Shown: positions 10,382 to 60,317, numbered from the stretch's first letter. The stretch: DNA of 64,000 bases from an uncultured Candidatus Saccharibacteria bacterium (GCA_964594965.1 CAZQMX010000002.1:44306-108305); one strand, 5' to 3'. The notes: generated by a model from the sequence alone, not told the origin. Made by a program: numbers and translations.

Positions 10382-10384
10382 TTA

Positions 10385-10516
10385 TCAACTCTCAATAACC
10401 AATAACCAATCAACGATCAAGTATCAATGATCAATTCTTGAATTAATTAATTTAATTGAAAATTAAGAAATTGATAATTGTTTGATAATTGAAAATTGAT
10501 AATTGAAAATTAGCTT
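10385..10516. repeat. AT-rich tract with repeated AATTGAAAATT/GATAATTG motifs (dprA-topA intergenic)
   Basis: ...aattgaaaattaagaaattgataattgtttgataattgaaaattgataattgaaaatt. Confidence 0.5.
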
Positions 10517-28568: not shown

Positions 28569-31517
28569 TTACTTCTTAATTCCGAGCCAGAGATTATGGC
28601 CGTTTAATTTGATCTCCTTTTCAACCAAAAAGACTTCCCCGATGTTTTTAGAGTCGGGATCCCGACCTTGTGTCGGGACTTTCTTTTTTGGCCCGCCCGC
28701 ATTGCCTTGCGAAGCATGGCGGGCGGGTCCGGCTTCAATTTTTCTGGCTGAAACTTCTTTTTTAATTTCTTCGAGGTTGTTTTTAATTAAATCGCTTAGT
28801 TTTGATTCACCGGCTGAATAGCGGAAATATGCTGGTTGGCCTGGTTTTAATCCGGCGTCTTTTCTCATTCCCTGGATAAAACGGATTAAATCCCGAATCA
28901 TTCCTTCTGATTCTAATTCTGAAGTAATTTTTGTATCTAATTTAATACTTTTGCCAAAATCAACTTCTTTAACATTAACTTCTTCTTTGATTAATTGGGT
29001 TAATTCTTTATCCTGGACAATCTGTTTTTTGGTAATTATTAATTTCTTCAGAGGTTGTCTGACTTTAATTCCTTTTTCTGCTCTTTTAGCCAGAGCCAAA
29101 GCAACAATTTCTCTGACATCATTCATTTTCTTTTCCAGCTTTTCATCAATTAAAGATTTGTCCGGCTTGGGATAACCGCAGAGATGAACGCTTTCTTTGT
29201 CTTTTCCGGTCCGAAGCTGAAGATAAATTTCTTCGGAAATGAAAGGGGTGAAAGGAGCGATTAATTTGGATAAATTAAGTAAGGTTGAATAGAAAATCTG
29301 TGAGGCTTCTTCTTTTTGTTTTCTATTCTCCGGTTTCTGAAACCTCGATCTTGACCGTCTGATATACCAGTTAGACAAATCTTCAACAAATTCCTCAATT
29401 AAACGAGCAGCCGAGACAACATCATATTTCTCTAAATTATCAATGACCAAAGTGTTTAATTGATTAAATTGAGAAACAATCCATTTATCCAGAATGAATC
29501 TTGGCTTTGTTTTCTTTGGTTTAAAGTTTTTGTCTTTGTAAGTATTGAAAAAGACAGCCGAGTTATGAAGCGTTCCAAAAACTCTTCTGTTTTTGTCGGC
29601 AACATCCTTAACATCAAATCTCTTTGGCTCTCCAGCGGAATTGATGGTGTATAAGTACCAACGGAGAGTGTCGGCTCCGAATTGTTCGCACATTTTCCAG
29701 GGATCAACAATATTGCCCTTTGACTTTGACATTTTCTTGCCTTTCTTATCCAAGACATGGCCAAGAGAAATGACATTTTTAAAACAAGCCCCATTCTTAA
29801 TTTCTCCGGCTTCCTCCATTAAAGTCGCGATGGCAAGGAGAGAATAGAACCAGCCTCTGGTCTGATCAACGGCCTCGCAGATATAGTCGGCGGGGTAGTG
29901 GTCTTTTAATTCCTTCTGGCTGTTTTTCTGATGAGGATAGCCCCATTGAGCAAATGGCATTGCTCCTGAATCAAACCAGACATCAATAACTGACTTTTCC
30001 CGAATCATTTGGCCGCCGCACTGGCATTTGAATTTAACCTGGTCGATATGTGGCCGGTGAAGATCTTTAATTTCTTTTCCCAGTTCCTTTATACTGCCAA
30101 TTGCCTTTTCCTTATCGCATTTCTGGCATTTCCAGATTGGCAAAGGGGTCCCCCAGTATCTTTCCCTTGAAAGAGCCCAATCCTTGGCTTCTTTAATAAA
30201 TTCGCCAAACCGGCCATATTTGGTGTGATTCGGCTCCCAATTAATCTTTTCGTTGTTATCTGTCAGCTTTTTTCGAAGAGATGACATTTTAATAAACCAG
30301 GAATCTTCGGCGTAATAGAGAAGAGGGGTGTCGCATCGCCAACAAAAAGGATAATCATGCTCGTATTCTTCTTCCTTGAATAAGAGGTTTTTCTCTTTTA
30401 AGTAATTAATAATTTTCTTTTCGGTTTCTTTATCTTTAACATATTGATTAGCTAAACCATATGGAGCCAAATCATTGGTAAAATATCCTTTTTGATCAAC
30501 AGTATGGATTTCAGGCAAGCCGATTTCTTTACCCAGATTATAGTCATCTTCGCCATACATGACAGCAGTATGAACAATGCCGGTTCCTTCTTCGGTTGTA
30601 ACAAAATCAGCTAAAACAAGGTAATGGGATTTCTTTTTACTTTTTTTAACTGATTCAATTTCAAAGAGAGGCTGGTATTCAAGACCAACCATATCCTTTC
30701 CTTTGAGCTCTTTTTCTACTTTATAGTCGCCTTCAATAATTTCTAATCTCTCCTTGGCTAAGATATATTTCTTGCCCTGGTATCCTATCTTAACGTAATC
30801 AATATTCTTTCCAATGGCTAAAGCGACATTTCCCGGCAGGGTCCAGGGAGTAGTTGTCCAGGCTAAAATATTGTCCCCCTTTTTTACTTTTTCATTTCCT
30901 TTGGTAATTTTAAAATTAAGATAAACTGAATTCTCTTTTACTTTCTCGTATCCCTGAGAAACCTCGTGGGTGGATAGAGCTGTTCCGCAGCGGGTACAAC
31001 GGGGAACAACCTTAAATCCTTTGTAAAGCAGTCCTTTTTCCCAAACTTTTTTTAAAATATGCCAAACGCTTTCAATATATGAATTTTCGTAAGTAATATA
31101 TGGATTATCCATATCTATCCAATAACCAATCCTATCTGTCATTTTTTCCCATTCGTCCTTGTATTTCCAAACACTTTTTTTACATTCCTGATTGAATTTA
31201 TCAATTCCATATTTCTCAATATCGTCTTTTCCTTTGAAATTTAATCTTTTTTCAACTTCAATTTCAACTGGCAGGCCATGCGTGTCCCAACCGGCCTTTC
31301 GATGACAAAAAAATCCGCGCATGGTTTTGTACCGCGGAATGATATCTTTAAAAGCTCTGGCTTCAACATGGTGCATGCCTGGTCGACCATTGGCTGTTGG
31401 CGGACCTTCAAAAAAAACAAAACTTTTTTTGCCTTTGTTTTTTTTCAAACTTTTTTCGAAAATTCCAGACTTTTTCCAGAATTTTAGAATTTTTAATTCA
31501 TTCTTTGAAAAGTTCAT
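28569..31517 (-). CDS. ileS: isoleucyl-tRNA synthetase (type 2-like), with C-terminal repeat insertions
   Basis: KMSKSKGN; WALSRERYWGTPLPIW; CWRCDTP zinc motif; 982 aa. C-terminal region contains two adjacent GC-rich elements (AGPARHASQGNAGGPKKKVPTQGRDPDSK). Confidence 0.9.
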   Translation of the reverse strand: MNFSKNELKILKFWKKSGIFEKSLKKNKGKKSFVFFEGPPTANGRPGMHHVEARAFKDIIPRYKTMRGFFCHRKAGWDTHGLPVEIEVEKRLNFKGKDDIEKYGIDKFNQECKKSVWKYKDEWEKMTDRIGYWIDMDNPYITYENSYIESVWHILKKVWEKGLLYKGFKVVPRCTRCGTALSTHEVSQGYEKVKENSVYLNFKITKGNEKVKKGDNILAWTTTPWTLPGNVALAIGKNIDYVKIGYQGKKYILAKERLEIIEGDYKVEKELKGKDMVGLEYQPLFEIESVKKSKKKSHYLVLADFVTTEEGTGIVHTAVMYGEDDYNLGKEIGLPEIHTVDQKGYFTNDLAPYGLANQYVKDKETEKKIINYLKEKNLLFKEEEYEHDYPFCWRCDTPLLYYAEDSWFIKMSSLRKKLTDNNEKINWEPNHTKYGRFGEFIKEAKDWALSRERYWGTPLPIWKCQKCDKEKAIGSIKELGKEIKDLHRPHIDQVKFKCQCGGQMIREKSVIDVWFDSGAMPFAQWGYPHQKNSQKELKDHYPADYICEAVDQTRGWFYSLLAIATLMEEAGEIKNGACFKNVISLGHVLDKKGKKMSKSKGNIVDPWKMCEQFGADTLRWYLYTINSAGEPKRFDVKDVADKNRRVFGTLHNSAVFFNTYKDKNFKPKKTKPRFILDKWIVSQFNQLNTLVIDNLEKYDVVSAARLIEEFVEDLSNWYIRRSRSRFQKPENRKQKEEASQIFYSTLLNLSKLIAPFTPFISEEIYLQLRTGKDKESVHLCGYPKPDKSLIDEKLEKKMNDVREIVALALAKRAEKGIKVRQPLKKLIITKKQIVQDKELTQLIKEEVNVKEVDFGKSIKLDTKITSELESEGMIRDLIRFIQGMRKDAGLKPGQPAYFRYSAGESKLSDLIKNNLEEIKKEVSARKIEAGPARHASQGNAGGPKKKVPTQGRDPDSKNIGEVFLVEKEIKLNGHNLWLGIKK
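28650..28680. repeat. GC-rich element family 1, in frame inside ileS 3' end (adjacent to a family-2 copy)
   Basis: gagtcgggatcccgaccttgtgtcgggac; encodes KVPTQGRDPDS. Confidence 0.6.
28689..28730. repeat. GC-rich palindromic element family 2, in frame near the 3' end of ileS
   Basis: cccgcccgcattgccttgcgaagcatggcgggcggg; encodes AGPARHASQGNAGGP. Confidence 0.65.
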
Positions 31518-34292: not shown

Positions 34293-34353
34293 ATGCCCGG
34301 TAGTAGAACTTTGATAGGTCCCGCAGTGCTGCGGGACAAGAATACTGGGCATA
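34293..34353 (+). promoter_or_regulatory. structured leader element copy B (smpB upstream)
   Basis: atgcccggta-gtagaactttgata-[ggtcccgcag-tgc-tgcgggac]-aagaa-tactgggcat; distal complementary segment atcaaagtttcactaccggg at 34414..34433 abuts the smpB ATG. Confidence 0.55.
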
Positions 34354-34433
34354 GAAATAAGTATTAATTTATAGGTAATAATGTAGGAGTTTTGATTAAA
34401 TTACTAAATTAGAATCAAAGTTTCACTACCGGG

Positions 34434-34883
34434 ATGGCAACCTTAGTCAGAAATCCAAGAGCCAGGTTTGATTACCATATCCTTGAAAAATTCGAGGCTG
34501 GTTTAGTTTTGGCCGGTTTTGAAGTTAAGGGAATTAAAAACGGAAGAATGACTTTAAGGGGCTCCTATGTCACAATTAAAAATGAAGAAGTTTTTTTAAT
34601 TAACGCCCAGATTATGCCCTATCAGCCCAAAAACACACCGCAAGATTACGAACCAAGCCGAACCCGAAAACTCCTTTTAAACAAATCTGAGATTAAAAGA
34701 TTGATTGGGAAGACTAAAGAGAAAGGCTTGACTTTGGTCCCTATTCGGGTCTATACTAAACACCGAAAGCTTAAATTGGAATTTGGTCTGGGTCTGGGAA
34801 AGAGAAAAACTGACAAAAGAGAAGTTATTAAAAAAAGAGAAACCCAGCGCAGAATCCGAAGGGCCCTACGAGAGAAAGTATAA
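34434..34883 (+). CDS. smpB: SsrA-binding protein SmpB
   Basis: RNPRARFDYHILEKFEAGLVLAGFEVKGIKNGRMTLRGSYV is the canonical SmpB N-terminus. Confidence 0.9.
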   Translation: MATLVRNPRARFDYHILEKFEAGLVLAGFEVKGIKNGRMTLRGSYVTIKNEEVFLINAQIMPYQPKNTPQDYEPSRTRKLLLNKSEIKRLIGKTKEKGLTLVPIRVYTKHRKLKLEFGLGLGKRKTDKREVIKKRETQRRIRRALREKV

Positions 34884-36190: not shown

Positions 36191-36247
36191 CCCGGTAGTA
36201 GAACTTTGATACAATTCGCCAAAGGCGAATTAAGAATACCGGGCATA
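36187..36247 (+). promoter_or_regulatory. structured leader element copy C (between rpmI and rplT)
   Basis: atgacccggta-gtagaactttgata-[caattcgcc-aaa-ggcgaattaa]-gaa-taccgggcat, starting on the rpmI TGA stop; distal segment atcaaagtttcactaccggg at 36308..36327 abuts the rplT ATG. Confidence 0.55.
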
Positions 36248-36327
36248 AAATAGAGTAATAACATTTAATACAGGGCTTTGATTTTTTGATAAATTAAGTT
36301 AGTCAAAATCAAAGTTTCACTACCGGG

Positions 36328-36672
36328 ATGACCAGAGTTAAAAGAGGCGTTACTGCCAGCAAAAGAAGAAAAAAAGTTATTAAAATGGCCAAGGGCTATA
36401 AGTGGGGAAGAAAGTCGAAATACAAGGCGGCTAAAGATGCTGTTCGCCACGCCCTGGGTTATGCTTATCGAGACCGCCGAAGAAAAAAGCGGGATTTTAG
36501 GCAATTATGGAATATTAAGATTAATGCCGCTTCAAGAGAAAAAGGAATTACTTATTCTCAATTTATTAATAAATTAAAAAAAGCTAAGATTGAATTAGAC
36601 AGAAAAATCTTAGCTCATTTGGCAGAACACAAACCGGAAGTCTTCTCAAGGATTGTTGAGAAAATCAAATAA
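36328..36672 (+). CDS. rplT: 50S ribosomal protein L20
   Basis: [55 protein letters not shown] is the L20 signature. Confidence 0.9.
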
Positions 36673-45819: not shown

Positions 45820-46362
45820 ATGTCCGGTCATTCAAAATGGTCTTCAATTAAACACAAAAAAGCAATTACCGACGCCAGACGGGGTAAGATTTTTTCTAAA
45901 ATATCCCGTTTGATTAGCGTTGCTGCTAAAGAAAAAGGCGGTGATCCGGAAAGTAATTCTAAATTAAGATCGGCTATTGAACAGGCCCGTCAGGTCAATA
46001 TGCCCAAAAGCAATATTGAGAAAGCGATTAAAAAAGGAACTGGCCAGGTCAAAGGGGCTCAAATGGAAGAAATTATCTATGAGGCCTATGGCCCTTCAGG
46101 CATCGCTTTAATTATTACCGGCATCACTGATAACAAGAACCGGGCAACAGCTGAAATCAGACACATCTTAACCAAATTTGATGGAAAGCTGGCTCAGGTT
46201 GGCAGTGTCCGATATATGTTTAATAAAAAAGAGGAGGACTGGGAACCAAAATATCCTGTTGAAATTGCTGACGAAAAAACAAAAAAAAGACTGGAAAAAC
46301 TTTTTGAATCCCTGGATGAAAATGATGATGTCCAGGAAATCTATTCTAATTTAAAAATGTGA
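45820..46362 (+). CDS. yebC: YebC/PmpR family transcriptional regulator (short form)
   Basis: MSGHSKWSSIKHKKAITDARRGKIFSKISR canonical YebC N-terminus. Confidence 0.8.
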   Translation: MSGHSKWSSIKHKKAITDARRGKIFSKISRLISVAAKEKGGDPESNSKLRSAIEQARQVNMPKSNIEKAIKKGTGQVKGAQMEEIIYEAYGPSGIALIITGITDNKNRATAEIRHILTKFDGKLAQVGSVRYMFNKKEEDWEPKYPVEIADEKTKKRLEKLFESLDENDDVQEIYSNLKM

Positions 46363-47045
46363 CTATCTCTAAGGCAAATAAAATAAATTCGGGAAAGAAG
46401 TATTCCGAGAATTGGAGGAAAAAAGTAAGTAAAGGGTGGTTTAAAAAAGAAGGCATTCCTTGGAATAAAAGCAAAAAGATGCCTATGGAGACAAGGAGAA
46501 AATTAAGTAGAGCCCTTAAGGGACGCAAGGCTTGGAATAAGGGAAAAACAATGCCGGAAGAAGTAAAAAAGAAGTTGAGTGAACTTCTTAAAGGAAAGCG
46601 TCGTTCACCCGAGACAGAATTTAAAAAAGGACAATATAAAGGAGACGGGAACCCAGCCAAAAGAATGGAAATAAGAAGAAAAATAAGTGAAGCCAAAAAA
46701 GGAAAACCACACTTCAATCAAAGAGGAAGAAATCACGGAAACTGGAAAGGCGGGATTACTCCTAAAAACGAAAAAATCAGGAAAACTCTAGAATATAAAT
46801 TATGGAGAGAAGCTGTCTTTGCTAGAGACAATTGGAGTTGTCGAAAATGTAGAAAAAGAGGAAGTAAATTAGCTTCACATCATCTCTATAACTTCGCCGA
46901 TTTCGCCAGATCACGAACCTCGATTGAAAATGGAATTACCCTTTGTGAAAAATGTTATAGAGAATTCCATAAAGTTTATGGCTTAAAGAGGAATACAAAA
47001 GAAAAATTCGAAGAGTTTTTAAGTTTGCCCAATCGTTATAAATAG
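46359..47045 (+). CDS. HNH homing-type endonuclease with NUMOD3 DNA-binding repeats
   Basis: Four to five W/GNKGK...MPEE/TRRK NUMOD3-like repeats, then HNH core CRKCRKRGSKLASHHLYNF...NGITLCEKCYREFH. ATGA overlap with the yebC stop. Confidence 0.75.
   Translation: MTISKANKINSGKKYSENWRKKVSKGWFKKEGIPWNKSKKMPMETRRKLSRALKGRKAWNKGKTMPEEVKKKLSELLKGKRRSPETEFKKGQYKGDGNPAKRMEIRRKISEAKKGKPHFNQRGRNHGNWKGGITPKNEKIRKTLEYKLWREAVFARDNWSCRKCRKRGSKLASHHLYNFADFARSRTSIENGITLCEKCYREFHKVYGLKRNTKEKFEEFLSLPNRYK
46359..47045 (+). mobile_element. free-standing HNH endonuclease gene inserted between yebC and ruvC
   Basis: yebC-ruvC are normally adjacent; an HNH-NUMOD gene sits exactly between them. Confidence 0.5.
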
Positions 47046-47069: not shown

Positions 47070-47546
47070 ATGACTATCTTAGGCGTAGACCCGGGAGTAG
47101 CCCGTGTAGGGTATGGTTTAGTTAAAAAAACATCAAATAATAATTTAAAACTGATTGACTATAATTGTATTGAAACCGATAAAGAATTACCGATTGCCCA
47201 GCGACTTAGCCAGATAGATAAACAATTGAAAAAGATAATCAAAGAAAACAAACCAGAACAGGTAGCTGTCGAAGATATTTTCTTTTTTAAGAATCTTAAA
47301 ACCGTAATTGCTGTTAGTCAGGCCCGGGGTGTTATTCTGGCCAGAGCGGCTAAAATGAGAATTCCTGTTATTGAATACACTCCCCTTCAGATTAAACAGG
47401 CCGTGACAAGTTACGGCCGGGCGGATAAAACCCAGGTTCAAAAAATGGTTAAATTGCTTTTAAAATTAAAACAAATTCCCAAGCCGGATGACGCTGCCGA
47501 CGCGCTGGCAACAGCCATCTGCTGCGCTCATTCTGTTTGTCAATAA
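47070..47546 (+). CDS. ruvC: Holliday junction resolvase RuvC
   Basis: MTILGVDPGVARVGYGLV start and catalytic acidic residues (VEDIFFFKN, DAADALA). Confidence 0.85.
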   Translation: MTILGVDPGVARVGYGLVKKTSNNNLKLIDYNCIETDKELPIAQRLSQIDKQLKKIIKENKPEQVAVEDIFFFKNLKTVIAVSQARGVILARAAKMRIPVIEYTPLQIKQAVTSYGRADKTQVQKMVKLLLKLKQIPKPDDAADALATAICCAHSVCQ

Positions 47547-47547
47547 A

Positions 47548-48210
47548 ATGTCATTTATCAGTCAATATTTAATCAATCAGGGAATGCCTGAGGAAACATT
47601 AATTCTTCTTTTAATGCTGCCAATTGTGGCAACCATTATTGCCTTTGCCCGCCAGGTCATTGGCATTAAGGGCTTTGGCATTTACACCCCTTTAATCATT
47701 TCTTTTGCTTTTTTAGCGACTGGTTTAAGATATGGCCTGGCTCTTTTTCTGATAATTCTCCTGGTCGGGACGATTATGAGGTTAGTTGTTAAAAAATTCC
47801 GCCTTCTCTATCTTCCCCGAATGGCAATTGTTTTAACAGCGGTTGCCGTTGTTGTTATTGCTCTTTTTCCCCTCGGAGCATATTTTGACCGAAATGGTCT
47901 GATTGGCGCTTCGATTCTAGCTATTCTAATTATGACAACCCTGGTTGAAAAATTTATTGTCGCTCAGATTGAAAGGGGTGCTCGGGGAGCAATCCTTTTA
48001 ACAACCGAAACTCTTTTTCTTTCCGTCATTTCCTTCTTTGTTATCAGCTGGATCTGGCTCCAAGGATTTGTCTTAATTTACCCTGCCTGGATTATTCTGG
48101 CTGCTGTTTTAGCCAATATTCTTTTAGGCAAATGGACCGGTCTTCGTTTAACTGAATACTTCCGTTTTAAGGAAGTTATCAAACATGCTGAAATTTCTGG
48201 AAAAAAGTAA
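47548..48210 (+). CDS. 7-TM integral membrane protein (first gene of the ATP-grasp operon)
   Basis: Start at MSFISQYL (the ORF-track start 47488 overlaps ruvC). Seven hydrophobic helices, no soluble domain. 26-nt overlap with the next gene. Confidence 0.55.
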   Translation: MSFISQYLINQGMPEETLILLLMLPIVATIIAFARQVIGIKGFGIYTPLIISFAFLATGLRYGLALFLIILLVGTIMRLVVKKFRLLYLPRMAIVLTAVAVVVIALFPLGAYFDRNGLIGASILAILIMTTLVEKFIVAQIERGARGAILLTTETLFLSVISFFVISWIWLQGFVLIYPAWIILAAVLANILLGKWTGLRLTEYFRFKEVIKHAEISGKK

Positions 48211-49513
48211 ATACGTTCTGGGATTAAATGCCCGCAATCTGACTTATCTCCGGCCCTCCAATAGTTCGAGGGCTGTTCGGATTGCTGATAACAAGCTTTT
48301 AGCCAAGAGGATTTTGAAAAAAGCTGGCTTGCCGGTTTTGGATACTCACGCCACCATTTCTGACTCAAAAGAATTAAGGGAGTTTGACTGGAATTCCTTG
48401 CCGCCAACCTTTGTTTTGAAACCTAATCGGGGTCTGGGCGGTGAAGGCATTATCATTGTTTACGGCAAAAAAAAGAAAGCTCCTTATCCCTGGGTCAGGG
48501 CAGACCGGAGAACGGTTGAAATTGAAGACCTCGAAGATCACACCCAGAATATTCTGGATGGAACCTATTCTTTAACCGGTTTGCCTGATGTTGCCTTTTT
48601 TGAAGAAAGAGTCAAATTAATTAAACTCTTAAAGCCGTATTCTTTTAGAGGAATTCCTGATATCCGCATTATTGTCTATAACTCTGTTCCGGTTATGGCG
48701 GAAATGCGCTTACCAACCCAGGAATCAGGCGGTAAAGCCAATCTTCATTTAGGCGGCATTGGTGTTGGTATTGATATGGGCAATGGTATTACTACAACTG
48801 CTATTCAAAGAGACCGTTTGATTGAATACGCTCCTGGAACCCGACTTCCCCTTTCAGGAATTCATATTCCTGATTGGAAAGAAGTTCTTCGAATGGCAAT
48901 TTACGCCCAGCAGGCAACCCGAATTGGATTCCTCGGCATTGACATTGCTATTGACCGGGATAAGGGACCAATGATCCTGGAATTAAATGTCAGGCCGGGC
49001 CTATCAATCCAGATTGCTAATTTGACTCCTTTGGGAGATCGCCTCCAAAGGGTTAAAGGCCTTAAAATTAAAACTATTAATAAGGGGGTTAAAATTGCCC
49101 AGGATCTTTTTGGCGGTGAAATCGAGGAAGAACTTGAAGAAATCTCTGGCCGGAAAGTAATTGGCATTAACGAACCAATTGAAATTCTGGACAATGATGA
49201 AAACAAACATCCAACCATGGCTAAAATTGATACCGGCGCCTACCGGACAACAATTTGCCAGACCCTGGCCGATAAATTAAATCTGAATAAGATTATTAGC
49301 CACAAGAAAGTCAGAGGAGCATTAGGGATTGAAGAAAGACCGATTATTAACCTCTCTTTTATTTTAGATAAAAGACTAGTCACAACCGAAGCTTTTGTCG
49401 CTGACCGGAGCGAGATGAAATATGATATTATCGTCGGAAGAAAAGATTTGAAAAGGTTTTTGGTTGATCCGGCTAAGAACGTCTTTATGCGGGGGAAAGG
49501 ACGAGTTAGTTAA
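48185..49513 (+). CDS. fusion protein: RimK-related alpha-L-glutamate-ligase-like ATP-grasp domain (N) + retropepsin-like aspartic protease domain (C; RimB/PF05618-like)
   Basis: N-terminus VLGLNARNLTYLRP...IADNKLLAKRILKKAGLPV matches the alpha-L-glutamate ligase-related family pattern (GMN-RN--YI...ADDKLLTK-LA--AG-PVP). C-terminus has KIDTGAYRTTI (D-T-G-A at 49229..49240) plus a second half with IIVGRKDL, typical of retropepsin-like protease. Confidence 0.7.
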   Translation: MLKFLEKSKYVLGLNARNLTYLRPSNSSRAVRIADNKLLAKRILKKAGLPVLDTHATISDSKELREFDWNSLPPTFVLKPNRGLGGEGIIIVYGKKKKAPYPWVRADRRTVEIEDLEDHTQNILDGTYSLTGLPDVAFFEERVKLIKLLKPYSFRGIPDIRIIVYNSVPVMAEMRLPTQESGGKANLHLGGIGVGIDMGNGITTTAIQRDRLIEYAPGTRLPLSGIHIPDWKEVLRMAIYAQQATRIGFLGIDIAIDRDKGPMILELNVRPGLSIQIANLTPLGDRLQRVKGLKIKTINKGVKIAQDLFGGEIEEELEEISGRKVIGINEPIEILDNDENKHPTMAKIDTGAYRTTICQTLADKLNLNKIISHKKVRGALGIEERPIINLSFILDKRLVTTEAFVADRSEMKYDIIVGRKDLKRFLVDPAKNVFMRGKGRVS

Positions 49514-49515
49514 TT

Positions 49516-51009
49516 ATGCTTATCAAAGACCTAGCCTCTCTAAAAGAATACTTTTCTCAGATTAAAACTCCGATATTTGGCGCCGGGGTCTATGTTTTTA
49601 ACCGGCTTGGCCTGGAAGATATCTATTCCAATTACCGGATTCTGGCCCTGCGCTATAGTTTGGATACCAAACTAATTGAAAAAGGCATTAAGGTTCTGTC
49701 TTTGGAAAAGGGAATGGGAACCAGGCATATCAGAGAGCCAAGAAATGCCACCACCGTTATTAGCCATTCTAAAACAAAAGAATACCTTAAGAAATTCCAA
49801 AATCCGGCTATTCTGGTTTATCAGCCGTCTAAAAAAATGGAAGAGGTTTGTCAGGAAAATGGATGGGAATTACTTAACAATCCGACAAGTTTTGGCAAAG
49901 ATCTATTGGAAAACAAAATCAAATTCAGAAGAATCTTAAAAGAATTAGGTATTGCTGTTCCGCCCGGAAAAATTGCTTCAGCTTCCAAACTTCATTACGG
50001 GCATTTGATTAATAGGTATGGGTTGCCTTTTGTTATCCAGCATCCAACCAAGGGCGGCGGCAAAGGAACTTTTTTCATCAACAACAAAGAAGATTTTGAC
50101 CAGGCCTACAAGAAACTTCATAAGAAATGGGACGAAGATAATGAAAAAGAAGTCACTCCGCCGGATGAAGTTATTGTTGCCCAGTTTATCCAGGGTTCTT
50201 CCCCTTCAATTACCGCCTGCGTTACAAAACATGGCGTTCTTTCAACCAATCTTCAGTATCAGATTCTTGATGCTCCGAAGTTATATAATCCGGAAAAGGG
50301 TTCTGGTCTTTTCTGCGGTCATGACTGGACAAGTTCCAGGTTTTCTGATTCAATCAATTACCAGGCCTACGAAGCTGTTGAAAAAATCGGCCAGTATTTC
50401 AAAGAGCTGGGCTACAAGGGAATTTTCGGCTTAGATTTTGTCCTTGACGAAAAAAAAGAAAAACTCTACATTGTTGAATGTAATCCCCGCTTTCTTGGTT
50501 CTTACCCGGTTATTAACATGGCTCAGTTAATAAACAACGAGCCGCCAATTCTGGCCTTTCATGTTTTGGAGTTTTTAGGAAATGATTACCAGATTGATAA
50601 AAATGAAATTAATTACCAAATGCGAAGAGAAAAAATCGGCGCTCAGATGATTTTGCATAATTTAACAACCAAATGGGCCAGAAATCACAAGCAAATTAAG
50701 GCCGGGGTTTACAAATTAAGGAAAAACAAATTAAAATACATCCGGGAGGGGTATGATTTAAAGCATTTAAGAGAAAAGGAAGAATTTCTTTTAGCTGACG
50801 GGGTTTCATTAAAACATTCCCATTTTAGTCCTAATCGCCGGCTTTGCCGGATCCTGACTCTTAATCAATGCCTTGCTGATGATTACAAGAATCTTAATCC
50901 CTGGGCAAAGCAGGTATCTGAAACAGTCTATTCTGCCTTTGAAATGAAACCAATCAAGTTTATTAAACTCAAAAAATTCTTTTTTCCTAATCTTTTAGCT
51001 AAAGGTTAG
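49516..51009 (+). CDS. ATP-grasp superfamily ligase with N-terminal pre-ATP-grasp domain (uncharacterized subfamily)
   Basis: KIKFRRILKELGIAVPPGKI...GLPFVIQHPTKGGGKGTFFINNKEDFDQAYKKL...VIVAQFIQG...GIFGLDFVLDEKKEKLYIVECNPRF. 2-nt gap from the upstream gene. Confidence 0.6.
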   Translation: MLIKDLASLKEYFSQIKTPIFGAGVYVFNRLGLEDIYSNYRILALRYSLDTKLIEKGIKVLSLEKGMGTRHIREPRNATTVISHSKTKEYLKKFQNPAILVYQPSKKMEEVCQENGWELLNNPTSFGKDLLENKIKFRRILKELGIAVPPGKIASASKLHYGHLINRYGLPFVIQHPTKGGGKGTFFINNKEDFDQAYKKLHKKWDEDNEKEVTPPDEVIVAQFIQGSSPSITACVTKHGVLSTNLQYQILDAPKLYNPEKGSGLFCGHDWTSSRFSDSINYQAYEAVEKIGQYFKELGYKGIFGLDFVLDEKKEKLYIVECNPRFLGSYPVINMAQLINNEPPILAFHVLEFLGNDYQIDKNEINYQMRREKIGAQMILHNLTTKWARNHKQIKAGVYKLRKNKLKYIREGYDLKHLREKEEFLLADGVSLKHSHFSPNRRLCRILTLNQCLADDYKNLNPWAKQVSETVYSAFEMKPIKFIKLKKFFFPNLLAKG

Positions 51010-51014
51010 GCTCC

Positions 51015-52043
51015 ATGATTACATACTTTAATACAAAAAAAGAGATTAATCTCAAAGAATTTATCGGCCGGGGGGGTCGTTTTTTAATTCTGCATTTAAG
51101 GGAACTTAAAAAAAGGAATATTGATTGTCAGGTTCTTGTCCAGAAAAGAAAAGACAGGGATGATGTTCTTTTCTTGAAAATTAGAAAAGAAGGCAAGACC
51201 AGATGGCTTTCTCCTCAAAAAGGATATTTCAATACCAAGCAAAGCTGCGAACTGGCCCTTCACAAAGACCTGACTTACAAGATTCTTGAATCAGTTAATT
51301 TGCCTGTTCCTCAAAACTACAAGATTGAAAAAATCAGCCAATTAAAGAAAATAGATTTGTCTTATCCGGTTGTGGTTAAACCAACTGACCAGGCCAAGGG
51401 CAAAGGTGTCCTAATTGGCATTAAAGACAGGGAAGAATTGAAAAAATCAGTTAAAAGACTGCTTAAAAAATATTCTTCTTTGATTGTTGAAGAATACATT
51501 CCGGGAAATGATTATCGTCTTTTAATTCTGGATAAAAAACTCCTGGGAGCGATAAAAAGAACGCCGCCAAAAATTAAAGCTGATGGAAAAAGAACCATCC
51601 GGGAATTAATCAGAAAGGAAAACAAAAAAAGATATGATAGGCCAATTGCCTTTAAGCCCTACTCCAAAACACTGGAAATTGATTTAGAAGTTAAGAGATG
51701 CTTAAGAGAGCAAGGTTATTCCCTTAATTCAATTCCTAAAAAGGATGAAAAAATTATTGTCAGGAGAAATACTAATTTCTCGAGCGGTGGAGAAACATTA
51801 GATGTGACTAAAAAAGTTCATCCGGAGAATATTAAAATCGCCAAAAAGGCGATTAAATCTCTCGGACTTAAATTCGGCGGAGTTGATTTCGTTGCTGAAA
51901 AAATATCAGAGCCGATTAGCCGGAACAATGGTCGGATTGTTGAAATTAACGGTATTCCTGGAATTTGGATACATCATTTTCCAAATCACGGCCAAAGAAG
52001 AAACATTGCCAAGAAAATTATTGATTACTTGTTTGAAAACTAA
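51015..52043 (+). CDS. stand-alone cyanophycin-synthetase-N-domain-like / RimK-like ATP-grasp ligase
   Basis: YPVVVKPTDQAKGKGVLIGI...DYRLLILDKKLLGAIKRTPPKIKADGKRTIRELI...NFSSGGETLDVTKKVHPENIKIAKKAIKSLGLKFGGVDFV closely parallels the CphA N-terminal ATP-grasp motifs (DYRLLVV..KVVAA..RxPAxVxGDG..TIxELI ... NLSTGGxAxDVTDxVHPxN...GLDIAGIDF). Confidence 0.7.
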   Translation: MITYFNTKKEINLKEFIGRGGRFLILHLRELKKRNIDCQVLVQKRKDRDDVLFLKIRKEGKTRWLSPQKGYFNTKQSCELALHKDLTYKILESVNLPVPQNYKIEKISQLKKIDLSYPVVVKPTDQAKGKGVLIGIKDREELKKSVKRLLKKYSSLIVEEYIPGNDYRLLILDKKLLGAIKRTPPKIKADGKRTIRELIRKENKKRYDRPIAFKPYSKTLEIDLEVKRCLREQGYSLNSIPKKDEKIIVRRNTNFSSGGETLDVTKKVHPENIKIAKKAIKSLGLKFGGVDFVAEKISEPISRNNGRIVEINGIPGIWIHHFPNHGQRRNIAKKIIDYLFEN

Positions 52044-52955: not shown

Positions 52956-53048
52956 AAGTAAACAAAAAAAAAACCGATTAGGGTTGGTTTGTAATCACCA
53001 AAAGAGTTTAAAGTATAATTTTTAGCAGTTCAGGAAATCGTTCTGTCT

Positions 53049-53579: not shown

Positions 53580-53604
53580 ATTATACCCTCCCCAAACAAA
53601 AAAA
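53580..53604 (-). promoter_or_regulatory. repeated promoter cassette (minus-strand sense TTTTTTTGTTTGGGGAGGGTATAAT) upstream of the hydrolase gene
   Basis: TATAAT located ~12 nt before the GGAG SD/ATG of 53049..53573; identical 25-nt cassette recurs at 54391..54415. Confidence 0.4.
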
Positions 53605-53622
53605 CCAATTGGGATTGGTTTT
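53601..53622 (-). terminator. terminator hairpin (aaaaccaat-cccaatt-ggtttt + T-run on minus strand) after membrane-protein gene
   Basis: Same hairpin sequence recurs at 56023..56044 downstream of mpg. Confidence 0.5.
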
Positions 53623-53668
53623 GGGACTTAAAACTAGTAACTGTAATTTACAATTAATTTGTTTCTCT

Positions 53669-54390: not shown

Positions 54391-54415
54391 ATTATACCCT
54401 CCCCAAACAAAAAAA
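54391..54415 (-). promoter_or_regulatory. second copy of promoter cassette TTTTTTTGTTTGGGGAGGGTATAAT (minus-strand sense)
   Basis: Identical to the 53580..53604 copy; precedes the 53669..54361 start. Confidence 0.4.
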
Positions 54416-54435
54416 CCAATCAGAAACCAATATAA

Positions 54436-55913: not shown

Positions 55914-56022
55914 AATTCCCTCCTTTATTGGATTATAGGTTGTCGGATTATATCAATATGCGGTTGTTAATTTAACTAAAAAACAGAATAACATAATATA
56001 CTATTCTGTCAAAATAAAATAA

Positions 56023-56044
56023 AAAACCAATTGGGATTGGTTTT
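56023..56044 (-). terminator. terminator hairpin after mpg (same aaaaccaat..attggtttt module)
   Basis: Identical hairpin module to 53601..53622. Confidence 0.5.
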
Positions 56045-56072
56045 GGGCAGAGGAATTTGCGAAAACTCTTTT

Positions 56073-56684
56073 TTAGTTGCGATACAGGAATCTTAATTTA
56101 CGCTGACTCCCATCAAGTTTTGGACTGATACCAATTCTTTTGTCAGATAATATTTCCTTGGGGCTTATAACAACGCCTCTGTCTTCAATAAATATGGTAT
56201 TTCCTGTTAAATTTTTGCCGTACAAATTGATATCAATGCCAAACGACTTGCATAGATTTCCCGGTGACTTGGTTAGATCATTAACCCGTCCAACCGGCTT
56301 CCCAAAATTACCCTTCATTATTTCTATGCCTTCCTCAGGAATAACTGCTCTAATAAAGACGACTTCTGGAATATTTTTCTTATTAACAACCAGAGCAAGC
56401 TGATGATAAATCCCGTAAACAAGATAAACGTAGGCATATCCACCATCCTGATACATAACTTCTGTTCGTCTAGTTCTTTTATTCCCGTGTGAGACTTTAT
56501 CAGAAAAAGCTGGATAAGCCTCAACCTCAATTATTTTTCCAGAAACCTTCCCTTTTGGGGAATTAAATACTAAATATTTTCCCAGAAATTCCTTTGCTAT
56601 ATCCCGAGCTGACCGCTGATAAAAAGATTTTTGTAATTTAGGCATCTTTGGGTATGGGTTCATGGGGTTGCTTCTTGGGTACAT
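56073..56684 (-). CDS. mpg: DNA-3-methyladenine glycosylase (Mpg/AAG family); probable start MPKLQKSFYQR (~56645)
   Basis: FYQRSARDIAKEFLGKYLV...GKIIEVEAY...RTRRTEVMYQDGGYAYVYLVYGIYH...FIRAV matches PF02245 conserved blocks. Confidence 0.75.
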   Translation of the reverse strand: MYPRSNPMNPYPKMPKLQKSFYQRSARDIAKEFLGKYLVFNSPKGKVSGKIIEVEAYPAFSDKVSHGNKRTRRTEVMYQDGGYAYVYLVYGIYHQLALVVNKKNIPEVVFIRAVIPEEGIEIMKGNFGKPVGRVNDLTKSPGNLCKSFGIDINLYGKNLTGNTIFIEDRGVVISPKEILSDKRIGISPKLDGSQRKLRFLYRN

Positions 56685-58423
56685 TGATAATCATGATAAT
56701 ATTTATAATCTATACTGCTAATAAAATATCCTGGCTTGTAAGTAGATTTAGCACACCAAGACACTACTTTTTGAGTACAACTACTATCCCAGTAACTATA
56801 ATCACCATCCCAATATCTATCCGAATATATTAAAGAGGGTTCACATATTTTTGCTGTTTGAGTACACCTAGAGTCATAATAATAGAGATCCGAATCATCA
56901 TAAAAATATCCCGGATAATTTGTAGATTTATAGCATCCTGGCACAGCTATTTGAGTACACCCGCTGTTATGATAAAAAGATTGAGTTTGGGGATTAATAT
57001 AAAAATCTTCATAGAAAATACAATTGGCAAGATAATTACACTGACTATCAGAATAAATATTTTCTCCATCTGAATAATATCCAGAATAAGTCAAAGAAGA
57101 GTAGCAGGGCTTTACGTATTGAGGGCCCGAATAACTAACATTACCATCCCATATTCTTGTTATTTTAGCTTTTTCATGTAAGTAATCTTCTGGTAATTGT
57201 CCTATTTTCCAACCCTTCTCCGTAGTTTCGTAATAATAATACCAATCATTCCCTATTGGATAATAATATCCTGATTGAGCATGAACTGTTTTAATCCCTA
57301 CTCCCATATGGTCATGAAATTCGATTAATGAAGCTCCTAGTCCCATAGCTTGAACAAGAGAAGCAAATAAATAAGAAGTATCTTCACAATCACCATTTCT
57401 TTCAACAAATGTTTCTATTGGATATTTTGGGAGGTCAGCAACATTTGTATAAAAATCAGCCACATAGGGTAAGCCTTGGACAAAGCTTACTATAAAGGAA
57501 CTACGATGATAATTTTCTCTATCTGCGATTTCTTTTAACGCTTCTGCTATCTCTTTAATAAATGGGTCGTTTTCTATTACATATTCAAGACCGTGAGAAC
57601 TCCTTGGTTTATTTTTATAATACTCATACCAATCTTCCTGTATTGAATAATTCCTAGTCCAAGATTTTCCATTGTGTTCCCATTGAAAATTCTGAGCAAG
57701 ATATCTTCCCCCGCCAGATGGATTTGCATCTTCATTATCATTAATTCCATCGTCGTCAGAGTCTTTATTTGTATCTAGTGTCCCTTGGTCTAATTCTTGT
57801 CTGTAAGTCAATCCATCCCCGTCACTATCAGCGTTCATTTTTTCTTCTTCTGCTTCTTTTGCTAATACTTCCTGTTCAGCTACTTGCCTAGCTAATTCTT
57901 CTTGTATCCTTTTATCTTCTTCCTCCACCGCCCTCTGCTGAGCTACCTTTTTCGCCGCTTCAGCTCTAGATCTTTTTTCGGTCTCTTGTTGGGTTTTCTG
58001 CTCAGCTTCTTCTTTGGCTATTTTAGATTCTTGAGCTTCCCCCTTAGCCCTTCTCTCTTCTAGGCCACTCATTTCAACTTCTCGCTCCAGTTCTTCTATT
58101 TTAAATTTCTCTTCCCACGATACCTTATAAATTAAGTTCGACACGTTTGCGAAAATCGGTTTGTCAGCTAAGAAATTTGAAATTTCTTTACCAAATCCCT
58201 GGCTATATAACGCTGCACTTATGCCCACTACAATAATCGATATCCAAATTATTAATTTTTTTGATACGGGGACCTTAATAAAACTCTCTTTGGTCTTAAT
58301 CCTGTTTTTTACAAATTCTACGCCTTTATTTTTATAAGATGGAAAAGACACGATCAAATTACGCCACTTATTAAGCGCTTTATCTCTTATAGTTCTTATC
58401 CTGTTTTTGAGATCTTTCCTCAT
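56660..58423 (-). CDS. membrane-anchored surface protein: coiled-coil E/K-rich region, Asp-rich TSP3-like Ca-binding motif, transglutaminase-like cysteine-protease core, C-terminal Tyr/Cys-rich triple repeat
   Basis: N-terminal TM LIIWISIIVVGISAALYS; DSDGDGLTYRQELDQGTLDTNKDSDDDGINDNED; RNGDCEDTSYLFASLVQAMGL...EFHDHMGV (G-x-C-x-x-x-x-(Y/F)-x-A plus downstream His/Asp as in TGase-like cores); 3x Y..D...YYDS.CTQ....C.KSTY.PGYF repeats. Confidence 0.55.
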   Translation of the reverse strand: MRKDLKNRIRTIRDKALNKWRNLIVSFPSYKNKGVEFVKNRIKTKESFIKVPVSKKLIIWISIIVVGISAALYSQGFGKEISNFLADKPIFANVSNLIYKVSWEEKFKIEELEREVEMSGLEERRAKGEAQESKIAKEEAEQKTQQETEKRSRAEAAKKVAQQRAVEEEDKRIQEELARQVAEQEVLAKEAEEEKMNADSDGDGLTYRQELDQGTLDTNKDSDDDGINDNEDANPSGGGRYLAQNFQWEHNGKSWTRNYSIQEDWYEYYKNKPRSSHGLEYVIENDPFIKEIAEALKEIADRENYHRSSFIVSFVQGLPYVADFYTNVADLPKYPIETFVERNGDCEDTSYLFASLVQAMGLGASLIEFHDHMGVGIKTVHAQSGYYYPIGNDWYYYYETTEKGWKIGQLPEDYLHEKAKITRIWDGNVSYSGPQYVKPCYSSLTYSGYYSDGENIYSDSQCNYLANCIFYEDFYINPQTQSFYHNSGCTQIAVPGCYKSTNYPGYFYDDSDLYYYDSRCTQTAKICEPSLIYSDRYWDGDYSYWDSSCTQKVVSWCAKSTYKPGYFISSIDYKYYHDYQCTQEATP

Positions 58424-58491
58424 CTTTCATTAAAGGGGGTCACGAAAGCCTCCGTTTTTAAATATTAATGACTAAAAGCCTTGTATTTGAT

Positions 58492-59130
58492 TTATTCATT
58501 TTTAGGTATGGGTTCATGGGGTTGGGTGGGGTTATTGAGTCTGTCTACATCAGGAGGAAAGATTAATCCTGTTATTATGGTAAATATAGCTACGCCAATC
58601 AGGGTCGCGATTAATAGACGGAGTGACCATCTTCTTAACCAATCCCACTGCTTTTGTTTTTTTGTGATATTTTCTTCGAAGATTTTACGAAAACCTTCTT
58701 TTTCTGTATTGTTTAATTCTTCTATGTCCTTTTCAAATTTACCGATATCATGGTGTGCTCTAGAGATAACTTTTAATACATCTTGTCGGATAAACTTGGG
58801 TATAAATTCTGCTCGTTCGTCGGCAATTGCACGATTTGCCTCTAAAACTTTGTTTTTATATATAATTTCAAAAATAATAGATACTATCGGAAAAACTAGT
58901 ATCAAAACAAAAAGCTGAAAGGGTAAACTATGACCTTCTTCTCTTAAAAACAGGAAAGACATCGCGCCAAAAATACCAACGTCCAGAGAGATAAGAAGAT
59001 TAGAGAATTTGTAAGTTTTTTCCATCGCGAACTCATCCCTCATTTTTAAATTCTCGTCTTTATAAAATTCCAGACGTTTAATAGCGTTATCAAAGTATTT
59101 TTCTTTAAGTTCGTTGATAGGAGAAGTCAC
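58492..59130 (-). CDS. hypothetical membrane protein (3 TM)
   Basis: 212 aa ORF with three hydrophobic helices; no family motif. Confidence 0.4.
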   Translation of the reverse strand: MTSPINELKEKYFDNAIKRLEFYKDENLKMRDEFAMEKTYKFSNLLISLDVGIFGAMSFLFLREEGHSLPFQLFVLILVFPIVSIIFEIIYKNKVLEANRAIADERAEFIPKFIRQDVLKVISRAHHDIGKFEKDIEELNNTEKEGFRKIFEENITKKQKQWDWLRRWSLRLLIATLIGVAIFTIITGLIFPPDVDRLNNPTQPHEPIPKNE

Positions 59131-59144
59131 AAAATCTTATAAAT

Positions 59145-60317
59145 TTAACTAATTTTAACTTTAACAAACTTTCTTTTTCCAACTTGGATAATGGTTTTAT
59201 CCTTTGGTGTGATTTCTTCGTTTGGATCTTTGATGACTTTGTTGTCTATCTTGACTCCTCCCTGTTCTATTAATCTTCTGGCTTCGCTTTTGCTTGGGGC
59301 TAGTTTTGATTCTGTTAGAATATCTGTCAGTTTTGTTTTTTCTGGCTTGGCTTTGAAGATGGGGGTGTCGGTTGGTTTTTCTTTGTCTTTGAAGACCTGG
59401 TTGAATTCTTTTTCTGCTTTTCTGGCTAAATCTTCGTTATGAAAGGTTTTGGTAATTTCTTTGGCTAATTTGGCTTTATCTTCTCTTGGATTTTTAACTT
59501 CTTTGACTTCTAAATCAGTTAATAATTCAAAGCCGGGAAGGATTAGGTCGTCTGGCCAGGACATAATCTGGCCAAACATTTGATTTGGTTCTTCATCTAA
59601 ATTAACAACATTTCCTTCAGTTTTACCCATTTTCTTTCCGCATGAATCAACTAGAAGTTTGGTTGTTAAAACAAACTTTTCTTTGTTTTTCATCTTCTTG
59701 ATTAATGTCCTGCCAGCCAACATATTAAACATCTGATCATTGCCGCCAACTTCTAAATCTACATCCATAGCAACAGAATCATAGGCCTGGGTTAATGGAT
59801 AAAGGAATTCATGCAAATAGATTGATTCATCTTGCTTTATTCTCTCCTGAAACATATCTCTTTGAATCATTTGTCCGTGAGTGAAATTAGAAGCCATTTC
59901 AATTAAATCAATAAAACTTAATTTATCATTCCACTCACTATTATAAAGAACCTTAACTGGATTTTCTCCTTCAAAATTGATGACTTTACTTGCCTGTTCC
60001 TGGTAATTGGTCATGTTCTTTTTAACTTCTTCTCTGGTCATTTTCTTTCTAACGGCGGTTTTATCAGTTGGGTCGCCAATCATACTGGTAAAATCTCCTA
60101 AAAGGAAAATGACTTCGTGGCCGAGGTCCTGGAATTGGGCTAATTTTCTTAAGGTAATCGCATGGCCAATATGAAGAGTTGGCGCCGTAGCGTCATAACC
60201 ACAATAAAGTTTAATCTTTTTGTCAGATTTTAAAACTTTTTCTAATTCTTCTTTAGAAGGATAGATTTTCTCTACGCCTCTGGTTAAAATTTTGTTTATT
60301 AGTTTTTCTTTATCCAT
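59145..60317 (-). CDS. tyrS: tyrosyl-tRNA synthetase with C-terminal S4 domain
   Basis: PTLHIGHAI (HIGH), KMGKTEGN (KMSKS), S4-like ARRLIEQGGVKIDNKVI. Confidence 0.9.
   Translation of the reverse strand: MDKEKLINKILTRGVEKIYPSKEELEKVLKSDKKIKLYCGYDATAPTLHIGHAITLRKLAQFQDLGHEVIFLLGDFTSMIGDPTDKTAVRKKMTREEVKKNMTNYQEQASKVINFEGENPVKVLYNSEWNDKLSFIDLIEMASNFTHGQMIQRDMFQERIKQDESIYLHEFLYPLTQAYDSVAMDVDLEVGGNDQMFNMLAGRTLIKKMKNKEKFVLTTKLLVDSCGKKMGKTEGNVVNLDEEPNQMFGQIMSWPDDLILPGFELLTDLEVKEVKNPREDKAKLAKEITKTFHNEDLARKAEKEFNQVFKDKEKPTDTPIFKAKPEKTKLTDILTESKLAPSKSEARRLIEQGGVKIDNKVIKDPNEEITPKDKTIIQVGKRKFVKVKIS

Follow-up and report, generated by a model that had tools for sequence, protein, structure and literature searches.

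A direct repeat bracketing the gene of a predicted transglutaminase-fold surface protein in an apparent Patescibacteria operon

Introduction

How did a single gene, bracketed by a direct repeat, come to lie inside an operon of a reduced bacterial genome, and what would its product do at the cell surface? Both questions are raised by a stretch of 64,000 nucleotides (nt) from an uncultured Candidatus Saccharibacteria bacterium (GCA_964594965.1, CAZQMX010000002.1:44306-108305), hereafter the window, in which a minus-strand gene for a protein of 587 amino acids (aa) lies between a gene for a 212-aa protein and mpg, with a perfect 20-nt repeat at either junction. An attached lifestyle on other cells is generally assumed for Patescibacteria, and we know of very few surface proteins from this group for which an activity has been proposed. 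An initial annotation of the window took the repeat pair for the scar of a cassette insertion or a duplication and the protein for a transglutaminase-like surface protein. We find that an insertion scar is the best-supported explanation of the bracketing repeat, which we hold to be slightly better than an even chance, and that the annotation of the protein is essentially right, resting as it does on remote homology. Taken as a whole, the locus is a matter of gene gain and of an uncharacterised protein family, not of a new kind of system.

Results and discussion

The repeat and the reading frames that cross it

The 20-mer GGTATGGGTTCATGGGGTTG occurs in exactly two copies in the 64-kb window, at 56651-56670 and 58505-58524, as the initial annotation had it; a search of the window with up to three mismatches allowed gave no third copy, and no match was obtained in 100 dinucleotide shuffles, the expected number of copies being 0. 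Outside the window, where the annotation had proposed to look for further copies, the 20-mer matched only two metagenome contigs, both carrying the same unrelated short sequence without long open reading frames (ORFs), which by our own estimate is about what chance would give in so large a collection, and viral contigs gave no match. The repeat widens to 35 nt (56636-56670 against 58490-58524) with 31 of 35 positions identical; the 15-nt extension has p ~0.009 by shuffling, and beyond ~41 nt nothing significant was noticed. The 20-nt core is identical in the two copies, all four differences falling in the 15-nt arm (p ~0.03 if evenly spread). These direct repeats bracket the single minus-strand 587-aa gene and exceed chance. 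The genes and repeat copies concerned are the following, in window coordinates.

59145-60317, minus strand: tyrS, first in order of transcription
58492-59130, minus strand: gene of the 212-aa protein, an orphan membrane protein, second; its last 10 codons lie within the 35-nt repeat
56660-58423, minus strand: gene of the 587-aa protein, a predicted membrane-anchored transglutaminase-fold surface protein, third
56073-56663, minus strand: mpg, fourth (Pur_DNA_glyco, E=2.4e-44)
56021-56047, minus strand: terminator-like hairpin and T-run after mpg, closing the apparent tyrS-212aa-587aa-mpg transcription unit
56651-56670: 20-mer, copy 1, whose minus strand reads CAACCCCATGAACCCATACC; holds the 587-aa TGA and the overlapping mpg ATG
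58505-58524: 20-mer, copy 2, coding for ..QPHEPI.. within the 3'-terminal part of the 212-aa gene
56636-56670: 35-nt repeat, downstream copy; includes a second in-frame mpg ATG at 56643-56645 (M14)
58490-58524: 35-nt repeat, upstream copy; includes the 212-aa TAA, and a TAA stands in the same register in copy 1
58458-58499, minus strand: 13-codon ORF (MNKSNTRLLVINI*), beginning at an ATG homologous to mpg M14

No minus-strand terminator was found between tyrS and mpg, and the four genes look like one transcription unit. At copy 1 the TGA of the 587-aa gene (56660-56662) overlaps the gene-caller ATG of mpg (56661-56663) as ATGA, both inside the repeat as annotated, and mpg is probably translationally coupled to the 587-aa gene. 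The placing of copy 2 on the stop of the 212-aa gene (58492-58494) needs correction, since 11 nt separate the 20-mer from this stop, which lies downstream and is covered by the 35-nt version only. The region of interest is identical in at least eight independent assemblies (JGI, ENA, NCBI, Logan), hence the arrangement is not an assembly artefact. The population is present in the samples JGI 3300009374, 3300009405, 3300009127, 3300009329 and 3300009311, ENA ERZ23499057 and SRR9166041.

Both copies can be read in the frames of both neighbours. Translated as part of the 212-aa gene, copy 2 gives ..NNPTQPHEPIPKNE and copy 1 ..QPHEPIPKDA, with the TAA at the same position (..QPHEPIPKNE* and ..QPHEPIPKDA* for the two copies). 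Translated as mpg, copy 1 gives NPMNPYPKMPKLQKSFYQ.., which is the real mpg, and copy 2 gives NPMNPYLKMNKSNTRLLVINI* (NPMNPYLKMNK and NPMNPYPKMPK for the two copies). The nearest relative of mpg (from L011, 76% identical) starts at the equivalent of window M14, inside the 35-mer, and we infer that the 13-codon ORF at copy 2 is what remains of a duplicated mpg 5' end. On the simplest reading of the sequence, the 35 nt would be two copies of an ancestral junction where the end of the 212-aa gene and the mpg start overlapped, because both copies keep the TAA of the one frame and the ATGs of the other.

The end of the 587-aa gene tells a similar story. In an alignment of 43 sequences the tail of the family reads ..Y-Q-C-T-Q-K-A-D-L* and that of the window protein ..Y-Q-C-T-Q-E-A-T-P*. 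At the DNA level the similarity to the 3' end of the homologue at locus L008 (..TGT ACT CAA GTG GCA GAT TTT TAA) reaches GCA and stops exactly at the start of the 20-mer (CA ACC CCA TGA). Therefore, the last codons and the stop of the 587-aa gene seem to have been supplied by the duplicated target.

Proposed insertion into the junction and its alternatives

We propose that the ancestral order would have been tyrS - 212-aa gene - mpg, in which the 212-aa gene ran at its 3' end into the start region of mpg, and that a segment of ~1.85 kb carrying the single 587-aa gene and its own short leader entered this overlap, ~35 nt of the junction being duplicated upon insertion. Staggered cuts, a crossover in the 20-nt identical core acting like an attachment (att) site, and a microhomology-mediated join are candidate routes to such a duplication. 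The upstream copy would still give the 212-aa C-terminus and stop, followed by a dead 13-codon mpg stub, and the downstream copy would give the inserted gene its last three codons and stop, and mpg its start; the new gene would thereby have become translationally coupled to mpg within one operon. Under this model the junction of the empty site should read ...AATAACCCCACC-CAACCCCATGAACCCATACC-CAAAGATGCCTAAATTAC....

There could also have been no insertion at all: in a 212aa-587aa-mpg operon already in place, slippage, template switching or a short patch of gene conversion, promoted by C-rich AACCC(C)AT sub-repeats, would have carried the 35 nt from one junction to the other. The 20-mer is indeed built of AACCCCAT/AACCCAT sub-repeats, with copy 2 standing within a run of similar units; other duplicated junction modules are present in the window (30-nt exact at 53580/54391 and 27-nt exact at 53599/56021), and no compositional signal marks the gene as foreign DNA. 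We nevertheless regard such copying as improbable, for it leaves unexplained that the similarity of the 587-aa gene to its family ends exactly at the repeat boundary, that both copies retain the frame features of the 212aa/mpg overlap, and that no homologue elsewhere adjoins mpg or a 212aa-like gene.

A further possibility is that the 20-mer is a functional cis element, either a regulator or small RNA site or a signal for translational coupling, placed at two operon-internal boundaries. The copies are co-oriented, both stand at the 3' end of the upstream ORF with an ATGA, and the 20 nt are perfectly identical while the neighbouring bases have diverged. On the other hand, it occurs only twice in 64 kb, even with three mismatches allowed, and has no secondary structure (the minimum free energy of the repeat region, -0.1 to -0.8 kcal/mol, is no better than that of shuffles); the ATGA of copy 2 precedes only the 13-codon stub, and the two closest relatives do not conserve the sequence ahead of their mpg. 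We rate such a function as very improbable. Similarly, the repeat was dismissed as an attC site or a terminator, as no structure was found in it and no integrase among the window genes.

If the 587-aa gene was acquired, its relatives may be expected in other surroundings. Homologues form 132 clusters at 90% identity, those with a name being assigned to Nealsonbacteria, Portnoybacteria, Minisyncoccales or Patescibacteria. At eight loci in other genomes the homologues (42-61% identical) had eight different neighbourhoods, and tyrS, a 212aa-like gene or mpg was near the homologue in none of the eight. Six of these eight loci adjoin restriction-modification, abortive infection (Abi), RadC or SLFN_AlbA_2 genes, i.e. 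variable regions. The 212-aa protein, in turn, is represented among 5.8 billion clusters by itself and one homologue of 43% identity only, which adjoins a type I restriction-modification system. The different contexts and the orphan 212-aa gene fit an acquired gene, as far as gene order can tell, without proving it. It may be noted that at three of nine loci the family gene is closely followed by a DNA glycosylase gene (a uracil-DNA glycosylase in L099, 9271-9846, and in L105, 9174-9716, and Mpg in the window), which may be a coincidence.

These same observations bear on a more specific version, in which the repeats are attL/attR-like sites of a minimal one-gene cassette whose recombinase is encoded elsewhere and whose excision is still possible. 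Strand exchange would then take place in the 20-nt core, and the cassette arm would mimic the target and so restore the end of the 212-aa gene; the junction of the circular cassette should read ...TGTACCCAAGAAG-CAACCCCATGAACCCATACC-TAAAAATGAATAAATC.... The perfect core with all four differences in the adjacent 15 nt (p ~0.03), the intactness of both flanking genes and the occurrence of homologues at many loci, often in variable or defence regions, speak for such a cassette. However, no recombinase was noticed in the 64 kb, the 20-mer was found at no other homologue locus and in no viral contig, the repeat has no inverted-repeat or hairpin structure, and none of the at least eight assemblies carries an empty or excised allele. 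The sole apparent second example also fails: at L008 a 22-nt exact repeat brackets a HIT gene together with the homologue P0006, yet its motif TAAAAGATTTGGAGGGG.. is a dispersed intergenic repeat of L008 and L099, absent from the window, and L008 was dismissed as a target duplication. We consider an att-type cassette quite unlikely.

The dispersed repeat just mentioned (..GGAATATCTTAAGAATAGGTTTAGGGAGGA..TAAAAGATTTGGAGGGGATTTGGGG..) lies between genes of restriction-modification and defence islands in other Patescibacteria genomes, at L008 positions 4387, 5444 and 7711 and at L099 positions 3800, 4933, 4940, 5084, 11254, 11314, 14795 and 14855. Its exact copies reach 95 and 70 nt. The two different genomes share this repeat, which may mark the boundary of a cassette or serve as a leader element.

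Returning to the insertion scar, several points weigh against it. No empty site was found in any collection, the accessible collections holding no sufficiently close relative; in particular, the arrangement foreseen by the initial annotation, mpg directly followed by the gene at 58492, was not found in relatives. Relatives of mpg from GTDB genomes, at 76% and 69% identity, are not syntenic and are preceded by unrelated genes, the back-translated 212-aa protein gave nothing against metagenome contigs, and every contig with the exact 587-aa, mpg or 212-aa protein is in the filled state, the second member of the 212-aa cluster differing at residue 1 only. No integrase, transposase or recombinase was noticed in the insert or among the ~45 annotated window genes, the G+C of the 587-aa gene equals that of its neighbours with no compositional anomaly, and 35 nt is long for a target duplication of the transposase type. 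Furthermore, the other junction repeats of the window are shared terminator/promoter modules, and therefore the duplication of a junction may have causes besides insertion. An origin from phage or plasmid was also considered and rejected, as no relative of the 587-aa protein was found in IMG/VR or GenBank phages. The annotated cassette scar is plausible in that the frames, the non-syntenic homologues and the homology break fit it, although neither an empty site nor a nearby recombinase was found.

Compared with known systems, the locus resembles the attL/attR sites of integrative elements and the target duplications of transposons in that the gene between the direct repeats has homologues elsewhere in unrelated surroundings and the ends of both interrupted neighbours are intact. 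It differs from them in its single-gene payload, in having no recombinase, transposase, terminal inverted repeats or empty site that we could find, and, with respect to target duplications, in a repeat much longer than usual.

Architecture of the 587-aa protein

The initial annotation described a membrane anchor, an E/K coiled coil, Asp-rich loops of thrombospondin type 3 (TSP3) kind, a transglutaminase-like Cys-His core and Cys/Tyr repeats, and this layout is supported. The segments, all encoded on the minus strand, are the following.

Residues 1-55: K/R-rich N-terminus, 17 K+R of 55
Residues 56-75 (58199-58258): single transmembrane (TM) helix, the only hydrophobic helix
Residues 89-196 (57836-58159): E/K/A/Q-rich helical stalk
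Residues 197-235 (57719-57835): two TSP3-like DxDxDG calcium loops
Residues 241-425 (57149-57703): transglutaminase-fold core (by prediction), with the Cys346 codon at 57386-57388
Residues 426-587 (56663-57148): C-terminal Cys/Tyr-rich beta-hairpin repeat domain

The topology is predicted to be N-in and C-out. In the 43 family sequences the TSP3-like loops are invariant at D199, D201, D203, L205, E210, D221, S222, D223, D225, D229 and D232. The hidden Markov model (HMM) of bacterial TSP3 (PF18884) gave E=6.8 for the window protein, whereas five of the 43 members reached E<=0.01 (best 0.0012) and a relative of the core 1e-7. In the HMM check that the annotation had suggested, matches to Transglut_core and to TSP3 exist in the family, and both lie below threshold for the window protein itself.

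Instead of the three Tyr-rich C-terminal repeats first annotated we found five ~30-residue C-x-Q units (Y-x-D-S-x-C-x-Q-x4-5-C..) with Cys at 462, 489, 520, 549 and 581 and a DNA repeat period of 87-96 nt. This domain holds 10 of the 11 cysteines of the protein, all conserved. Its units are predicted to form short beta-hairpins at a mean predicted local distance difference test score (pLDDT) of 89; Foldseek against PDB gave no significant relative (best E 0.39). The Cys pairs expected to be joined are 462-468, 489-497, 520-527, 549-557 and perhaps 440-581. The resemblance to the hairpin repeats of combined repetitive oligopeptide (CROP), choline-binding and glucan-binding proteins is not significant. 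The AlphaFold2 (AF2) model is confident, as most 10-residue blocks from ~residue 150 onwards have a mean pLDDT of at least 85, with dips at ~321-330 (55) and ~521-560 (61-77).

A divergent transglutaminase-like core with a LapG-like motif

The catalytic region was examined in the same 43 sequences, which are 36-61% identical to the window protein. G344-D-C346-E-D348, H372 and E399-T400 are invariant in all of them. Of the predicted Cys-His-Asp triad, the Cys and His would be C346 and H372; the sole invariant downstream acid is a Glu, E399 of an ETT motif, a candidate third member assigned by conservation. The family profile searched against PDB matched LapG, 4fgo with E=6e-4 and 4u65_E with E=0.11, aligned on PvE..GDCED. 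Among the 43 members, seven matched Transglut_core (PF01841) and six DUF553 (PF04473) at E<=0.01; ten representatives with the core only gave marginal matches to both models, two of them above the DUF553 cut-off (21.4 and 22.7 against 20.5 bits).

Over residues 331-420 the AF2 model reaches a mean pLDDT of 85-96, and within the core (241-425) only ~321-330 is lower (55). A helix (346-359) starts at C346 and a strand (373-379) follows H372, which is the papain-like alpha+beta arrangement. The top Foldseek matches against PDB were all of transglutaminase fold (3isr, PNGase, LapG, 3kd4, Rad4, menin and PeiP), with probabilities of 0.92-1.00 for ranks 1-13 and 0.99 over 170 columns for 4u65_E. Thus, combined together, the LapG profile match, the Pfam matches of the family and the AF2 and Foldseek matches argue for a transglutaminase fold.

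Some of these results are less favourable to that assignment. Transglut_core scored E=0.011 and 16.5 bits for the window protein, against a cut-off of 23; the profile alignment with LapG spans only ~42-50 residues, ending at GDCED; the Foldseek E-values are only 1e-3 to 1e-2, and E399 is placed as the third catalytic residue by conservation, not by superposition.

An exhaustive search with the full-length profile gave 1026 representatives of 50%-identity clusters at E<=1e-30. Most of the 150 best listed representatives match only profile positions ~243-428, in many architectures, and the full architecture is present in only a handful of clusters. No curated Pfam or NCBIfam model captures the core group at threshold, and nothing relevant on the 587-aa family in Patescibacteria was found in the literature. 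Judged by profiles and models, the core is a divergent branch of the transglutaminase-like superfamily, with its motif closest to that of LapG and not a LapG orthologue.

LapG is a Ca-dependent periplasmic cysteine protease of transglutaminase-like fold with Ca ions beside its active site (PMC4359373). It is the best sequence-profile match of the 587-aa family in PDB, and LapG/BTLCP proteins (4fgo, 4u65) share with it a papain-like fold and a nucleophilic Cys in an acidic G-D-C-E-D motif after P-x-E. This motif lies beside the Ca2+ sites of LapG, where its acidic residues around the Cys coordinate Ca2+ (PMC4359373), and the invariant GDCED of the 587-aa protein aligns on it; both proteins act outside the cytoplasm, the 587-aa protein by prediction. 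Repeated marginal matches to Transglut_core and DUF553 over the Cys-His region, and the membership of 3isr, 3kd4, PNGase and PeiP in the superfamily, point the same way. In contrast, LapG itself is a small soluble periplasmic protein of diderms which is controlled by LapD and c-di-GMP and cleaves adhesins of LapA type, while the Patescibacterium protein is membrane-anchored and carries a stalk, TSP3 loops and Cys/Tyr repeats, its third catalytic residue apparently being a Glu 27 residues after the His. Since no partner genes of LapD/LapA type were seen among the genes annotated in the window and at the homologue loci, and since the protein is TM-anchored, it was not taken for an orthologue of LapG.

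We therefore offer the following working model. The one TM helix would anchor the protein N-in, and a coiled-coil stalk of ~100 residues would hold it off the membrane. The core would carry the putative nucleophile C346 in the LapG-like acidic GDCED motif, with H372 and probably E399, and the Tyr-rich hairpin array, predicted to be stapled by disulfides, most likely binds a polymeric surface ligand. The protein would thus be a Ca2+-dependent extracellular cysteine protease or isopeptidase acting on the cell's own envelope or on that of a host.

The domain could instead serve a non-catalytic adhesin as a binding or scaffold module, as inactive transglutaminase-like domains do in 7TM fusions, Rad4/XPC and menin. 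We rate this as unlikely while giving it some weight, since several of the best structural matches are non-enzymatic (Rad4, menin), the Pfam score is weak and the C-terminal repeats resemble, without significance, the ligand-binding hairpins of CROP, choline-binding and glucan-binding proteins. What argues for an enzyme is that C346, H372 and E399 are invariant in sequences of such moderate identity and that the acidic GDCED motif is common to the active protease LapG; a purely structural role is disfavoured because C346, H372, E399 and GDCED are all invariant. A function in defence was rejected, for neither PADLOC nor NCBIfam gave a match.

The 7TM_transglut cluster of the window

The initial annotation also suggested a functional link between the 587-aa protein and a 7TM/ATP-grasp/protease triad nearby. 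On the plus strand at 47488-52043 there are indeed a 7TM_transglut gene (PF14402), three ATP-grasp genes and a match to PF05618. This cluster lies on the opposite strand from the 587-aa gene with five unrelated genes between them, and 7TM_transglut, ATP-grasp or RimB-like genes were found in none of the eight homologue loci, which leaves the link unsupported. In 7TM_transglut systems one usually finds the transglutaminase module as an inactive fusion to the 7TM protein; in the 587-aa protein, by contrast, the catalytic residues are invariant, the likeness being that of a transglutaminase-like domain. Systems of 7TM_transglut, ATP-grasp and RimB-like protease genes were reportedly described by Iyer, Abhiman, Burroughs and Aravind in 2009 in Mol Biosyst. 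As an observation in its own right, one ATP-grasp gene carries a weak RimB-like match, and the cluster is an intact one of peptide-modification type in a reduced genome.

Other features of the window

The window is a core-genome stretch of Patescibacteria (the candidate phyla radiation, CPR) near dnaA/dnaN, with a G+C of 38%. Housekeeping genes are spread across it, namely ybeY, hisS, lepB, pth, dprA, parAB, recO, smpB/tmRNA, infC and holA, and further ruvB, yebC, ruvC, tyrS, a gene for a class A penicillin-binding protein and dnaN. The only gene of mobile-element type seen in the window is a NUMOD3 homing-endonuclease-like ORF (46359-47045, plus strand) between yebC (45820-46362, only 180 aa) and ruvC (47070-47546).

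Near-identical intergenic modules follow three consecutive minus-strand genes, which are mpg, a nicotinate phosphoribosyltransferase gene and a gene for a 230-aa protein, at 53580-53625, 54391-54420 and 56021-56047 (also 52956-53048). The 30-nt exact repeat (53580/54391) brackets the 230-aa gene, which has a Lycopene_cyc domain, and the 27-nt exact repeat (53599/56021) carries the terminator-like hairpin AAACCAATCCCAATTGGTTTTTT; two of the module copies then continue with TGTTTGGGGAGGGTATAAT, resembling a -10 box. The locus is thus one in which duplicated terminator-promoter units recur. An element of ~140 nt is present at 34296-34436 and 36191-36330, bounded at its ends by 20-nt inverted arms CCCGGTAGTAGAACTTTGATA ... 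ATCAAAGTTTCACTACCGGG; the 3' arm directly adjoins the smpB ATG in the first copy and the rplT ATG in the second. It had no Rfam match and could be a structured leader or an insertion resembling a miniature inverted-repeat transposable element (MITE). Exact inverted repeats of 26 nt and 18 nt at 1029-1085 and 10380-10466 flank a 9.3-kb segment from ybeY to dprA, possibly an invertible segment or a duplicated regulatory region. Finally, a GC-rich hairpin (TC)GGGATCCCGACCTTGCGTCGGGAC at 1922-1947, 19692-19714 and 28654-28670 may be a terminator or an element like repetitive extragenic palindromes (REP).

Concluding remarks

Neither the protein family nor the repeat overturns current understanding. 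The 587-aa family is found in Nealsonbacteria, Portnoybacteria and genomes of Minisyncoccales type, and its core in more than 1000 clusters without a curated model; for these the present analysis offers a candidate, namely a predicted cysteine protease, tethered and probably Ca-dependent, that would have a binding module of its own. If the insertion is true, the bracketing repeat would be a clean case of a reduced genome gaining one gene inside an operon with its neighbours undamaged, and precise loss of the 587-aa gene should also be possible.

We see a slim chance that the locus holds more than this, in that either the Cys/Tyr hairpins are an undescribed ligand-binding fold specific to Patescibacteria, or the 20-nt core belongs to an active single-gene cassette system with its recombinase acting in trans. 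In the former case the hairpins would target a stalk-mounted, Ca-dependent protease to the envelope of the host, as a tool of the episymbiotic lifestyle; in the latter, the system would shuffle such surface proteins between Patescibacteria loci.

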